Notes: generated from the sequence alone by a model not told the origin. A stretch of 64,000 bases of DNA from Escherichia coli (GCF_003790525.1 NZ_CP033635.1), one strand, 5' to 3'; shown: positions 20,206 to 64,000, numbered from the stretch's first letter. Made by a program: numbers and translations.

Positions 20206-20252
20206 TGGTGGCCCCTGCTGGACTTGAACCAGCGACCAAGCGATTATGAGTC
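20206..20252 (-). tRNA. ileX: 3'-terminal 47 nt of a tRNA-Ile (ileX-type) gene; truncated tRNA remnant serving as island att core
   Basis: tggtggcccctgctggacttgaaccagcgaccaagcgattatgagtc is the reverse complement of a tRNA 3' half (T-arm, acceptor stem, CCA); similarity to tRNA stops abruptly at 20253. Confidence 0.7.
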
Positions 20253-20448
20253 ATGAGGCAAGTTCGTTCTATATTGTTTTTGTTTGTTCGTGATTGCTTT
20301 ATTAGTTGTTTGTAATCAATAAATTATGTGATTTTCCCTGTCTCCGCTTGGTTCCGTTTTTTCTTCATTGTACGATCGTTACCTGACCCATTACCTGACC
20401 CAAAATCACGAGTTATTCTGATTGTTACTGGTTTAGAAAAGAGGTTCT

Positions 20449-21765
20449 ATGGCCGTCAATCTTACTGAAACAGCCATCCGAGCATTGAAAGCAAAAAAGA
20501 CATCGTTCTATGTCTGGAGCAACAGCTCTCAACGTGGCACTGGACGACTTGGTGTCAAAGTTCAGCCTTCTGGCAGCAAGATTTTCTATTTCCGCTATTA
20601 CGTGGAAAAAGGGAAAAAAGAAAGATTCATTCAATTGGGTATATGGCCTGAGATGAAACTGGCCACAGCGAATGAACTGACAAAAAAGTATGGTGCCTGG
20701 CTCATTGAAGGAAAGGATCCCCAGGCAGAACTGGAACGACAACAGTTTGCAGAACAGCAGCGGATACAACTCCATCAATCACAGGGCTCATTTGAAGCAT
20801 TGATTCATGGTTATGTTAACAAAATGAAAATTGATAATAAGAGGACATGGCAGGATGTTCTGAAACGCCTTGAAAATGAATGCTATACAGTGATCCCCCG
20901 TGAAACTAAAGCTAAAGATGTGACTTCCGGACAGATTAAACATATCCTGGCCGGGATCATTCAGCGCGGTGCTGTGGTTCACTCTAACCGGATCCGTTCT
21001 TACCTGATGGCTGCATTTAACTATGGACTGAAAGCAGATAACGATCCGATGAACACAAGTGTAGGGATTACTTTTGGGCTGGAGGCAAATCCGGTGTCAG
21101 TGATACCGAAACAGTCATCTGCTGAAAAAGTCGGTGATACCTGGCTGACACTTGAAGAGTTGCGTTTTCTAATGGAACATTTTGCTGAAGCAACCAACGT
21201 TGGATTATTGATGCAACATTTGATCCGATTCTGTATCTATACCGGAGGGCAACGTCCTTTCGAAATGATCGCCAGTCAGTGGTGTGATGTTGATTTTCAA
21301 CAAAAAACGCTGCTGGTGACTGCTGATGTCTCTAAAAATAAACGAGAGCATTTGATACCGTTGACTGAATCAGCATTACAGGAATTATCCTGTGTGCAGG
21401 AGTTAACAAAAGAAAAATCCAGCCCTTACATTTTTCCACTTTCGACTAATGGTAAGCGTCCGGTTCGTACGGACAGTCTGGCTCGCGCTATCATGTATTT
21501 CCGGGCTTTTAATCCTGACTTTAAAATTTTTACAGCACGTGACTTACGTCGGACCTGTAAAACGTTAATGGGAGAAGCTGGGATCAGTAAGGAAATCCGC
21601 GATCGTATTCAAAATCATGCGTTGAACGATGTCAGTTCAAAACATTATGATCGATACGATTATTTGCCAGAAAAACGCAGAGCACTTGAGATCTGGGAGG
21701 ACCGGGTTAATAACTATCAACAGCAAACAGGCAATAATGTTGTCAATCTGTTTGGCAGAAGGTGA
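20449..21765 (+). CDS. P4-type tyrosine integrase
   Basis: 438-aa ORF; C-terminal catalytic region with R...HxxR...Y arrangement (ARDLRRTCKTLM, HALNDVSSKHYDRYDY); directly adjacent to the tRNA fragment. Confidence 0.9.
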   Translation: MAVNLTETAIRALKAKKTSFYVWSNSSQRGTGRLGVKVQPSGSKIFYFRYYVEKGKKERFIQLGIWPEMKLATANELTKKYGAWLIEGKDPQAELERQQFAEQQRIQLHQSQGSFEALIHGYVNKMKIDNKRTWQDVLKRLENECYTVIPRETKAKDVTSGQIKHILAGIIQRGAVVHSNRIRSYLMAAFNYGLKADNDPMNTSVGITFGLEANPVSVIPKQSSAEKVGDTWLTLEELRFLMEHFAEATNVGLLMQHLIRFCIYTGGQRPFEMIASQWCDVDFQQKTLLVTADVSKNKREHLIPLTESALQELSCVQELTKEKSSPYIFPLSTNGKRPVRTDSLARAIMYFRAFNPDFKIFTARDLRRTCKTLMGEAGISKEIRDRIQNHALNDVSSKHYDRYDYLPEKRRALEIWEDRVNNYQQQTGNNVVNLFGRR

Positions 21766-21894
21766 GGGAGTTCCTGGTTGCTGTACGAATTGTGTACAAT
21801 TGATGGGTATTGTTGATGCACTTGGTTCTTGTATTGTTTACTATAATTATTGAGGTAAATTTTCGTGCCGGTATTACTCAGAGGGGATTCAAAA

Positions 21895-22491
21895 ATGGCT
21901 GTAATTCCAATGTCTTACTCCCCTGCTACTGTAGCTCGTCGTTTTTCGATACTGGATGGAGTAACTATTCAGGGCGTGCTTTACCAGATCATCTGGGATC
22001 CAAAGACTCCGTTTGCTGCGGTAATCGAAGCTGCACCTTCTGTTATTGATGGTGATGTTCGCCATAAGGTTGTTGCCACTCTGGAGCTTCAGCGTCGTCC
22101 CCGGCTTGAAGGCGTGTTTGTCCAGAAATTCTGGGAAGAACAGGATGTTGCTCAGATTGAAGGGATTGTTGTCGATGGCGCTGTACGTGATGTTGGTCTT
22201 GCAACGTTTGTTTATGAAACGATAGTCACAAAAGCGGGCGTTGTACTATTAAGTGATAACGAGCAATATGAAGGAGGTAAAGCTCTCTGGCAGCATATTG
22301 CGCGTCGTTCAACGAATCTGAAGGTGTTTATTTTAGATACTGATTCCGCACGGTATTACCCGTTTGATGGCGAACGGATCAGTTATGACGGGAAAAGCAT
22401 CCCGGAATCAGAAATCTGGAGTGAACATCCTGAGCGAAACAGACACGCTGTCGTTCTTGTGGCTGAATCTGTTAATGGTAAAGCCGCATAA
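21895..22491 (+). CDS. Hypothetical protein (198 aa), integrase-proximal cargo
   Basis: Track ORF 21865..22491; ATG at 21895 preceded by AGAGGGGA RBS. Weak resemblance to GNAT motif A (VVDGAVRDVGLATFVYE) is not conclusive. Confidence 0.4.
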   Translation: MAVIPMSYSPATVARRFSILDGVTIQGVLYQIIWDPKTPFAAVIEAAPSVIDGDVRHKVVATLELQRRPRLEGVFVQKFWEEQDVAQIEGIVVDGAVRDVGLATFVYETIVTKAGVVLLSDNEQYEGGKALWQHIARRSTNLKVFILDTDSARYYPFDGERISYDGKSIPESEIWSEHPERNRHAVVLVAESVNGKAA

Positions 22492-22538
22492 TTTGCTGAG
22501 TGTCTCATTTTTTGAGATCTTGCTGGAAAGTCTCCTTT

Positions 22539-22561
22539 GGGGATAGCGAACTGCTATCCCC
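22539..22561. terminator. Bidirectional hairpin between convergent cargo genes
   Basis: ggggatagc-gaact-gctatcccc perfect 9-bp inverted repeat between stops at 22491 (+) and 22574 (-). Confidence 0.45.
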
Positions 22562-22573
22562 TTTCTCAGTGAG

Positions 22574-62039: not shown

Positions 62040-62128
62040 CTCTCCAGAATAGCCTTCTGCTACGGCCTGGTGCTTTCACCACGCCACTTTTCCATTTTTC
62101 ATCTCTGCATATCAGGAAAATCTTCAGT

Positions 62129-62512
62129 ATGAAAACATTACCTGTATTACCCGGGCAGGCGGCCAGTTCACGCCCGTCTCCGGTTGAAATCTGGCAGACA
62201 CTGCTCACCCGACTGCTGGACCAGCACTACGGCCTTACGCTGAATGACACACCGTTCGCCGATGAACGTGTGATTGAGCAGCATATTGAAGCTGGCATTT
62301 CACTGTGTGATGCGGTGAACTTTCTCGTTGAAAAATACGCACTGGTACGTACCGACCAGCCGGGATTCAGCGCCTGTACCCGCTCTCAGTTAATAAACAG
62401 TATTGATATTCTCCGGGCTCGCCGGGCAACCGGCCTGATGACCCGCGACAATTACAGAACGGTAAATAACATTACCCTGGGTAAGCATCAGGAGTCGAAA
62501 CGATGCAACTGA
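62129..62512 (+). CDS. cbtA: Type IV toxin CbtA/YeeV-like (cytoskeleton-binding toxin)
   Basis: 127-aa [26 protein letters not shown]... matches the CbtA family over its length. Confidence 0.8.
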
Positions 62513-62991
62513 CCCTGACACTGGAAGCCGACAGCGTTAACGTACAGGCACTGAATATGGGGCGAATTGTCGTTGACATTGATGGTGTTAATCTCGCTGA
62601 ACTGATTAACATGATCTGCGATAACGGCTACTCCCTTCGTGTTGTTGATGAATCTGACCGGACCTCAGCAGACTGCACGCCACCATTTGCTGCCCTTACC
62701 GGCATACGCTGCAGTACCGCACATATCACGGAAACGGACAACACCTGGCTGTACTCGCTGTCGCATCAGACGAATGACACCGGCGAATCAGAATGGATTC
62801 ATTTTACAGGCAGAGGGTATCTGTTACGTACCGATGCTTTGTCGTATCCGGTGCTACACCTTAAACGTCTGGGCCTGTCAAAAACCTTCCGCCGTCTGGT
62901 TGTCACTCTCATCCGGCGTTATGGCGTCAGTCTTATTCATCTGGATGCCAGCGCCGGGTGTCTGCCGGATTTACCCACTTTCGACTGGTAA
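62503..62991 (+). CDS. Hypothetical protein downstream of cbtA (YeeW-like position)
   Basis: 162-aa ORF overlapping the cbtA stop; no motif assigned. Confidence 0.35.
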
Positions 62992-63002
62992 CCAGAAACA
63001 AC

Positions 63003-63200
63003 ATGAAATCATTAACCACGGAAACAGCGCTGGATATTCTGATTGCGTGGCTGCAGGACAATATCGACTGTGAATCCGGAATTATCTTTGACAACGATGA
63101 GGATAAAACGGATTCGACAGCCCTGTTGTCCTGTATTGAACAGGCCAGGGAGGATATCCGTACCCTGCGCCAACTGCAGCTTCAGCCCCCGAACCGGTGA
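63003..63200 (+). CDS. Small hypothetical protein (DUF957-like)
   Basis: Track ORF 62958..63200; ATG at 63003 (MKSLTTETALDILIAWLQDN...). Confidence 0.35.
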   Translation: MKSLTTETALDILIAWLQDNIDCESGIIFDNDEDKTDSTALLSCIEQAREDIRTLRQLQLQPPNR

Positions 63201-63296
63201 GTTTCACTCATCATCTCACTCACCAGACTTCATTCCACTGACGCCAGCCTGAACAGGGCTGGCGTTTTCATTTATCTGCAAAAAGGAATATCGATT

Positions 63297-64000
63297 ATGT
63301 CTGATATCACAGCCTCCCGTCCGGAAGTAGTCAACGGGCATACGGACGTTATCTGCTCAACCAGTATCCGCCACATTCTGGCTGTACGAAAAAGTACACT
63401 GCTGCAAATCAACACACTTATCCGGCAACTGGCTGAAATCTCAGCAATGACAGAAAGTATTGGCGGTAAAACCGCACTGGACTGGGCGATGAAACAGGAT
63501 TTTCGCTGTGGCTGCTGGCTCATGGAGAAACCTGAAACGGCAATGAAAGCCATCACACACAATCTCGATCGTGAAATCTGGCGTGACTTGATGCAACGTT
63601 CCGGGATGCTTTCCTTAATGGATGCACAGGCCCGTGAGACATGGTACCGGTCACTGGAGTACGATAATTTTCCGGAAATCAGCGAAGCGAACATCCTGAG
63701 CACATTTGAACAACTGCACCAGAATAAGGATGAGGTGTTTGAGCGAGGGGTGATCAACGTCTTCAGAGGGCTGAACTGGAATTACAAAACCAATTGCCCC
63801 TGTAAATTTGGCAGTAAAATTATCGTCAACAATCTGGTGAGATGGGACCGGTGGGGATTTCATCTTATCACCGGACAACAGGCTGACCGACTCGCCGATC
63901 TGGAAAGAATGTTGCACCTGTTCAGCGGTAAACCAATCCCCGACAATCGGGAAAACATCACTATTCGTCTGGATGAGCACATTCAGTCTGTTCAGGGTAA
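63297..64000 (+). CDS. Hypothetical protein, partial (DUF4942-like; continues beyond window end)
   Basis: Frame open from ATG 63297 to the window edge (MSDITASRPEVVNGHTDVICSTSIRHIL...); absent from the ORF track because no stop is reached; competing minus-strand ORFs are shorter. Confidence 0.4.
   Translation, partial: MSDITASRPEVVNGHTDVICSTSIRHILAVRKSTLLQINTLIRQLAEISAMTESIGGKTALDWAMKQDFRCGCWLMEKPETAMKAITHNLDREIWRDLMQRSGMLSLMDAQARETWYRSLEYDNFPEISEANILSTFEQLHQNKDEVFERGVINVFRGLNWNYKTNCPCKFGSKIIVNNLVRWDRWGFHLITGQQADRLADLERMLHLFSGKPIPDNRENITIRLDEHIQSVQG

Follow-up and report, generated by a model that had tools for sequence, protein, structure and literature searches.

A genomic island of about 44.0 kb inserted in ileX

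The DNA analysed here was a stretch of 64,000 nt from Escherichia coli (GCF_003790525.1, NZ_CP033635.1), referred to below at its full length as the window, with positions counted from its first letter. From nt 20253 onward the window was almost certainly occupied by a single CP4-6-like integrative genomic island of ~44.0 kb, inserted site-specifically in the anticodon-loop region of the chromosomal tRNA gene ileX. This reading was based on a partial copy of the tRNA 3′ part at one end, forming a repeat with an intact tRNA at the other end that was seen in near-identical genomes, an adjacent integrase gene, an empty site in other strains, and a base composition distinct from that of the flank. 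The features at the two ends were as follows, those beyond nt 64000 being expected from collinearity with strain N-01 (see below).

19388-20152, plus strand: nfeF (yqjH), chromosomal flank on the remnant side (list of open reading frames, ORFs; 97.8% collinear with K-12 b3070)
20206-20252, minus strand: displaced original ileX 3′ part (tRNA-Ile CAU, positions 30-76 including CCA), att junction on the nfeF side
20233-20252, minus strand: 20-nt block CGACCAAGCGATTATGAGTC (as read on the plus strand), the same in both repeat copies, putative strand-exchange region (alignment of attB, remnant and hybrid tRNA)
20379-20402, plus strand: tandem pair of the 12-mer TTACCTGACCCA, candidate arm-type integrase sites, P arm (2 matches versus 0.21 expected)
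~64160-64183: second arm-site pair, expected
~64201-64232: terminator hairpin, expected
~64241-64316: hybrid tRNA, expected

On the plus strand, nt 20206-20252 read TGGTGGCCCCTGCTGGACTTGAACCAGCGACCAAGCGATTATGAGTC, and the reverse complement was identical to positions 30-76, the last 47 nt, of K-12 ileX (tRNA-Ile, CAU), comprising two bases of the anticodon stem, the CAU anticodon loop, the variable loop, the T-arm, the 3′ strand of the acceptor stem, and CCA. Collinearity with the mug-ileX-nfeF/yqjH region of K-12 (BLAST, NC_000913.3; nfeF is the present name of yqjH, b3070) covered window 18472-20252 and ended exactly at nt 20252, 47 nt into ileX. A three-way alignment showed that the window was the same as K-12 across the nfeF terminator and the 47 nt and unrelated thereafter; a preliminary description, made from the sequence alone, had taken this segment for the 3′ part of an ileX-type tRNA that stops abruptly, and it was correct to the nucleotide. 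The remnant carried the E. coli-type T-arm, was contiguous with the E. coli downstream terminator, and had no insertion sequence (IS) end adjoining it. An intact ORF of 438 codons encoding an integrase started 197 bp away, within the 200 bp previously given, and from this ORF to nt 64000 only accessory DNA was present, that is, the cargo, IS elements and CP4-like backbone that had been proposed.

No tRNA was called in the window by ARAGORN or by Rfam at the gathering threshold, because only half a tRNA gene is present there. A permissive Rfam scan of nt 20100-20450 returned sub-threshold matches to Plastid-ycf2, HPnc0260 and others, which were rejected as spurious since they only picked up the T-arm.

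Empty sites were common. The population survey comprised 5426 complete E. coli genomes, in 4955 of which the mug-ileX-nfeF site was uninterrupted; it was also contiguous in K-12, where alignment of the boundaries bore out the earlier statement that the locus carries no island.

Distal end and hybrid tRNA

The window ended within the DUF4942 gene, and the distal end was studied in N-01, strain 20, and XD35, three near-identical complete genomes collinear with the island; neither these nor any other complete genome in the collection matched the whole window at 100%. Identity of N-01 to the window was 99.96% over the last 15.8 kb and 99.8-99.96% overall, except for an extra IS3 copy and a different hsdS. 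A complete tRNA-Ile began in all three genomes 241 bp past the base equivalent to window 64000 and was followed by mug and rpoD, in agreement with the earlier expectation of a full tRNA at the distal end outside the window. The gene in N-01 (locus L002, nt 46744-46819) was equivalent to about 64241-64316, just outside the window. By collinearity, the island would extend from nt 20253 to about 64287 and, with one repeat copy counted in, measure ~44.0 kb, consistent with the figure of more than 43 kb given before.

The far end had further been predicted to carry the same 47-nt core. A repeat was indeed present in the near-identical genomes, but it was not the same, with 43 of 47 nt identical to the remnant and exact agreement over 20 nt, from the anticodon stem/loop up to where the T-stem begins, and over 12 nt, the acceptor strand plus CCA. 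The T-arm of the intact tRNA was GTTGG-TTCAAAC-CCAAC versus GCTGG-TTCAAGT-CCAGC in E. coli, a difference of one compensated stem pair and two loop bases. In the intact tRNA of these relatives, the 5′ part was chromosomal and the 3′ part came from the island, and the distal repeat differs from the remnant because the island carries its own tRNA 3′ part with a different T-arm. The variant 3′ part was found in N-01, strain 20, and XD35 alike, each with an arm-site pair 57 nt downstream, and a terminator-like hairpin with a T run, supplied by the island, was located directly after the hybrid tRNA (N-01, L002 46704-46735). Beyond nt 64000, the source genome would be expected to contain TTACCTGACCCATTACCTGACCCA, the hairpin, and the reverse complement of GGCCCCTTAGCTCAGTGGTTAGAGCAGGC plus GACTCATAATCGCTTGGTCGTTGGTTCAAACCCAACAGGGGCCACCA, followed by mug. 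Since empty sites and the far-end tRNA were both found in relatives, neither of the two findings that the preliminary description had named as contradicting an insertion, a far end lacking tRNA and core or the same sequence at this site in island-free strains, was made.

Attachment sites and proposed recombination

The T-arm differences segregated, with the E. coli type beside the E. coli flank, as part of the remnant, and the variant type beside island DNA. This sorting to opposite ends of the island would place strand exchange inside the 20-nt block, which extends from the anticodon stem/loop up to the start of the T-stem and occurred in the window as a single copy versus 0 expected (100 shuffles, even with 3 mismatches), so that a chance match is discounted. 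An identity block from tRNA position 30 to the 3′ end was observed in the window and four other lineages, which corresponds to the anticodon-loop class of tRNA integration sites reportedly defined by Williams in 2002. Elements of this class are said to share with the host a block of about 45 nt that begins immediately 5′ of the anticodon loop and reaches the tRNA 3′ end, and to restore the tRNA gene, with the flanking anticodon stem giving symmetry, as is the case here. Nothing material differed, the element-borne copy in the present case being 4 nt diverged from the host gene, and it is this divergence that narrows the probable crossover to the 20-nt anticodon/variable block.

In the window, the two copies of TTACCTGACCCA were 126 and 138 nt away from the core, and int began 46 nt downstream of the pair. 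At the far end of the island in N-01, strain 20, XD35, and the Shiga toxin-producing E. coli (STEC) strain RM13514, a second, identical pair followed the hybrid tRNA at 57/69 nt, so that the core in the reconstructed attP was flanked by four direct copies, one pair on each side. Arm-type sites are classically arranged in this way where the integrase has an N-terminal arm-binding domain. Position and sequence of the pair were invariant in the 96% and 76% integrase alleles (see below), Enterobacter sp. Bisph1, and Escherichia sp. ESNIH1, and the pair was kept in Kluyvera ascorbata with the same A-to-G change in both copies, the surrounding non-coding DNA having diverged in all of them. By virtue of this conservation, the 12-mers are regarded as candidate arm-type sites to which the integrase may bind.

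Based on these features, the attP of the island would consist of the 47-nt tRNA copy (position 30 to CCA) with a tandem TTACCTGACCCA pair on either side. The island integrase (20449-21765) would bind the arm and core sites and exchange strands within the 20-nt block common to attB. The product on the mug side would be a complete tRNA made of the chromosomal ileX 5′ part and the island 3′ part, with a Kluyvera/Kosakonia-type T-arm and the island terminator, and beside nfeF the E. coli 3′ part of the original gene is left next to int as a dead 47-nt remnant. Excision, if the island is mobile at present, would presumably require the integrase together with the AlpA-family protein encoded at 24958-25185. 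Cargo between the conserved ends would have been replaced through IS-mediated events, yielding raf/sucrose, restriction-modification and Ag43 genes here and tellurite resistance or EspI in STEC. The anatomy described (imperfect 47-nt repeat, 20-nt crossover block, four conserved arm 12-mers) could serve for automatic recognition of islands of this integrase family.

Integrase and AlpA-family protein

20449-21765, plus strand: tyrosine integrase, 438 aa, intact (Pfam; PHROG 1 integrase, 7e-46)
24958-25185, plus strand: AlpA-family helix-turn-helix protein, 75 aa (Pfam Phage_AlpA, 3.2e-14; phrog_2790 "excisionase and transcriptional regulator", 3e-22)

The integrase possessed the domains Arm-DNA-bind_3 (PF13356, residues 5-97, 8e-14), Phage_int_M (residues 115-195), and Phage_integrase (PF00589, residues 232-391, 8e-10), and the R, K, RxxR, H, and Y catalytic positions were present and kept in relatives down to 57% identity. 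Box II of tyrosine recombinases usually reads HxLRR (HxxR). The box here (window 21556-21573, residues about 370-375) was RDLRR, with Arg for His in all relatives examined, also down to 57% identity. The label "P4-type integrase" used previously was apt with regard to domain architecture, since the three domains, with an N-terminal arm domain and a C-terminal catalytic domain, are those of P4/CP4-57-type integrases (PRK09692; DUF4102 arm domain), with which an AlpA-family gene is likewise associated. It was not supported at the family level, however, as a full-length alignment to NCBIfam PRK09692 scored 75.6 bits versus a cut-off of 434; RDLRR in place of HxLRR and the location of the gene at the remnant end of the island were further differences from these enzymes. 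A phage integrase close to that of the island and having a characterised att site was sought, and the best match was only 38.7% identical (Providencia phage PSTCR3). The AlpA-family protein, judged from its family matches, is likely the directionality factor/excisionase.

Similarity to CP4-6

25248-28366, plus strand: YagM-like, YagL-like, YagK/inovirus-Gp2-like, and YagK/YfjJ-domain genes, CP4-6-type integrase-proximal backbone (tblastn)
54959-64000, plus strand: CP4-type distal backbone with YkfA/YeeP-like GTPase, Ag43/Cah autotransporter (56168-59089), DUF932, antirestriction protein, RadC-like JAB, DUF987, YeeU antitoxin, CbtA toxin, DUF5983, DUF957, and DUF4942 (cut at the window end) (tblastn, annotation)

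Of 17 island proteins queried, 11 matched CP4-6 backbone genes of K-12 (yagM/L/K ... ykfI) in collinear order with E values from 1e-7 to 3e-135. By tblastn, the four integrase-proximal genes shared 31%, 36%, 57%, and 27% identity with their CP4-6 counterparts and the distal genes shared 49-82%, the order being conserved in both parts. CP4-6 (thrW ... intF) thus has the same succession as the island, namely int, YagM, YagL, YagK ... YkfA GTPase, YafZ/DUF932, YafX antirestriction protein, YkfG RadC-like protein, YkfH, YafW antitoxin, and YkfI toxin. It is also oriented alike: the intact tRNA adjoins the toxin end, and the far repeat adjoins the integrase. In the K-12 annotation, the toxin end abuts intact thrW, intF lies about 110 bp from the far boundary, and the element begins 49 nt before the tRNA 3′ end. 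That the integrase adjoins the remnant and not the intact tRNA is therefore the CP4-6 pattern and no anomaly. The two elements differ in target, ileX here versus thrW in CP4-6, and in cargo. The possibility that the window integrase was an IntF orthologue was rejected despite the CP4-6-like backbone, as the two proteins were barely related, sharing 25% identity over 167 aa of the catalytic domain only (E = 1e-5).

Rfam gave an "IS102 RNA" match at nt 55988-56224 (plus strand, 60 bits versus a gathering score of 46) in the intergenic leader between the GTPase and Ag43 genes, which probably represents a conserved regulatory region of the yeeP-flu type rather than an insertion sequence.

Distribution in E. 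coli and other genera

Among the genomes surveyed, the nfeF-remnant-int junction was detected in 391/5426, the DUF4942-tRNA-mug junction in 437/5426, and the integrase gene in 459/5426, every copy being chromosomal. The integrase DNA fell into alleles with at least 99%, about 96%, and about 76% identity. The distal 24 kb was common to only 28 genomes at 80% identity or more, whereas the integrase end was common to about 390-450. The ileX gene expressed in about 8% of the complete E. coli genomes would be predicted to have a T-arm derived from the island and not from E. coli.

An exact-match scan of one genome per species located the variant 47-mer at 62 places, most of which were complete, native-looking tRNA-Ile genes without arm sites in Kluyvera, Kosakonia, Edwardsiella, Dickeya, Lonsdalea, Atlantibacter, and others. 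The E. coli element appears to carry a tRNA segment of a different host lineage. Both island ends were found in Enterobacter sp. Bisph1, with a perfect 47-nt repeat, and in K. ascorbata, arranged as in Bisph1, and the integrase end in Escherichia sp. ESNIH1, the integrases of these three being 85-86% identical to that of the window; the integrase of Chimaeribacter coloradensis was 57% identical. These four had a 47-nt remnant starting from tRNA position 30, located 189-198 bp from int in the same divergent orientation, so the link between integrase and site is replicated across genera. The same 47-nt ileX remnant was observed in Kluyvera sichuanensis and Chimaeribacter arupi beside unrelated sequence that lacked both a homologue of this integrase and TTACCTGACCCA sites, and other integrase families appear to use the ileX sublocation as well.

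Several complete genomes (from chicken, pig, and human) had mcr-1.1 inserted in the segment homologous to window 40000-64000; in these strains, the ileX island is a landing pad for colistin resistance in the chromosome.

Alternative explanations

The mosaic structure of the island raises the question of a composite, in which two or more elements, such as an int-raf element and a CP4-type element without integrase, would have integrated successively at ileX with loss of the internal att site, so that the two ends would stem from different elements. The strongly mosaic composition, the presence of at least five IS or intron remnants at module boundaries, and the narrow distribution of the distal 24 kb relative to the integrase end all agree with such a history. 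Nevertheless, it is very unlikely: the window had one integrase only, the core did not recur in it even at 3 mismatches, and internal repeats of at least 40 nt were absent; the order int - YagM/L/K - GTPase ... CbtA is that of one known element, CP4-6; and the same ends with arm-site pairs bracket the differently loaded island of STEC RM13514, both ends occurring also in Bisph1 and K. ascorbata. As IS-mediated cargo turnover within one element explains the mosaic, a single element with conserved ends fits better than tandem integration. That the 47 nt is a decayed or truncated tRNA pseudogene, resulting from IS-mediated deletion or illegitimate recombination, and that the accessory DNA arrived non-site-specifically, would be compatible with the plentiful IS fragments in the island and with the failure to call any tRNA in the window, but this explanation is effectively refuted by a truncation at tRNA position 30 that was identical in lineages with 96%, 76%, 85%, and 57% integrases and in other genera, by the complementary hybrid, a complete tRNA, at the other end in relatives, and by a remnant that no IS end abuts.

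A defective prophage or P4-like phage satellite, mobilised by a helper through the int-AlpA-Gp2-like module, would share with P4 and CP4-57 an AlpA-family regulator and a DUF4102-type integrase; moreover, the inovirus-Gp2-like/YagK proteins were weakly similar to a replication-initiation PHROG, and CP4-6 has historically been termed a cryptic prophage. Against this origin, which is accordingly given little credence, none of the eight int-proximal proteins matched capsid, tail, terminase, or lysis PHROGs, and only the integrase and excisionase fell in assigned phage categories; no virion structural, packaging, or lysis genes were annotated in the N-01 island, the PHROGs scan being confined to those eight proteins. 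The best phage integrase match was as distant as stated above, and the element, at 44 kb and with its metabolic and adhesin genes, resembles a typical island. The features of an integrative conjugative element were likewise wanting, as no relaxase, coupling protein, or type IV secretion gene was found among the annotated N-01 island genes or the window ORFs, without a dedicated profile search.

Several points weigh against a site-specifically integrated, mobile island at ileX. The far junction of the source genome lies outside the window and its structure is deduced from near-identical genomes. Arg replaces the first His of the HxxR box, and activity of the integrase is assumed from its conservation. 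Excision to a circular form is a prediction, and the numerous IS fragments could have inactivated mobility. Lastly, no transfer functions (relaxase, type IV secretion, capsid) by which the element might move between cells were evident from annotation.

Relation to published islands at ileX

ileX is a published island site in E. coli, being occupied by tellurite-resistance islands in O145:H25, O145:H28 RM13514 (TRI-2), and O121:H19, by the 118-kb LAA island of O121:H10 RM10740, and by LAA modules in other STEC, which were described as "inserted downstream of ileX" (PMC9144400, PMC9729726, PMC5539235, PMC7545054). In the RM13514 genome, TRI-2 had the same integrase-hyp-hyp-AlpA module adjoining nfeF (96% DNA allele, WP_000290297.1) and the same DUF4942...CbtA module, hybrid tRNA-Ile, and arm-site pair adjoining mug, and the integrase end was also present with EspI cargo in STEC 2014C-3599. 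TRI-2 was published with a 12-bp direct repeat, which corresponds to the 12 nt of acceptor strand and CCA that match exactly within the imperfect 47-nt repeat; the att anatomy defined here is more precise. While the STEC islands at ileX are 52-118 kb and carry tellurite resistance, EspI/LesP, and IS66 copies, that of the window is 44 kb and carries raffinose/sucrose, type I restriction-modification, and Ag43 genes. A literature search found no description of the raffinose/restriction-modification cargo at ileX, and this version is annotated in many RefSeq genomes. The element is a textbook case of an island integrated in a tRNA gene, and its family has already been described at ileX. The value of the analysis is chiefly one of annotation, in that the island boundaries are fixed at 20253 to about 64287 and the absence of a tRNA call in the window is explained, and the ecological interest of the cargo (raffinose/sucrose use, type I restriction-modification, Ag43) is ordinary.

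Genes between the integrase and AlpA-family genes

21865-22491, plus strand: 208-aa gene beside int (phrog_7522, a family of unknown function, sole match)
22574-24178, minus strand: orphan 534-aa gene beside int (no family match)

This pair of genes without assigned function, notably the 534-aa orphan, is the sole unexplained item in the island. The orphan had no match in Pfam, NCBIfam, PHROG, or PADLOC, and a homologue search returned only 20 unannotated Enterobacterales clusters. Its AlphaFold (AF2) model was confident and mostly helical (pLDDT 78.9, pTM 0.80), and a Foldseek search of the model against the PDB gave no match better than E = 0.6. The gene was kept beside int in the 99% and 96% integrase alleles; the int-alpA slot of the 76% allele (strain ES8, L007 7433-9434) held a Fic/DOC gene and others, so the slot next to int is variable. 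That it is a variable cargo hotspot encoding an undescribed function here, such as a new anti-phage or island-maintenance system, might be suggested by position and conservation, but is considered rather improbable.

Cargo, IS elements and base composition

28573-29604, minus strand: IS3-family transposase fragment, boundary between backbone and sugar cargo (RefSeq annotation of the identical segment in N-01 and strain 20)
29985-39687, plus strand: raffinose/sucrose cluster with LacI-type regulator, alpha-galactosidase, oligosaccharide MFS permease, GH32 sucrose hydrolase, Crr-like IIA, split DUF2913, fructokinase, and LamB/ScrY-type porin (NCBIfam, RefSeq annotation, GC)
39924-44239, unstranded: IS debris, comprising a fragment of the IS256 family (IS1414) and a group II intron that splits an IS3-family element (Rfam, annotation, ORFs)
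44462-52443, plus strand: type I restriction-modification locus hsdM-hsdS-(DUF4268/PDC-S11)-hsdR (PADLOC, NCBIfam)
52624-54185, unstranded: transposase fragments (IS30, IS66 TnpA/B, another) (annotation of the 99.96% identical N-01 segment)

The flank had a GC content of 51-55% versus 35-58% in the blocks within the island, that is, 35-43% in the integrase module (20-28 kb), 57-58% in raf, 42-45% in the restriction-modification locus, and 50-57% in the backbone. The module boundaries bore IS3, IS256, IS30, and IS66 fragments and the group II intron. The latter comprised an ltrA ORF at 42333-43691 and an Rfam domain V/VI at 43695-43781, the halves of the split IS3-family element being located at 40771-41576, with an ALIL frameshift pseudoknot at 41052-41168, and at 43844-44239. 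In N-01, the annotation of the homologous ltrA includes an internal stop, and another IS3 copy is inserted beside the gene.

Within the restriction-modification locus, the PDC-S11/DUF4268 gene (48248-49411; PADLOC, 4.5e-182) was located between hsdS and hsdR. The only stretch of the locus that did not align with N-01 was hsdS (about 46881-48146), which suggests a swapped specificity subunit. The DUF2913 gene in the raffinose/sucrose cluster (36559-37135) was annotated in the identical N-01 segment as two short ORFs of 204 and 312 nt, suggesting a frameshift, and a Crr-like PTS IIA gene (36023-36553) was present in this otherwise non-PTS cluster.

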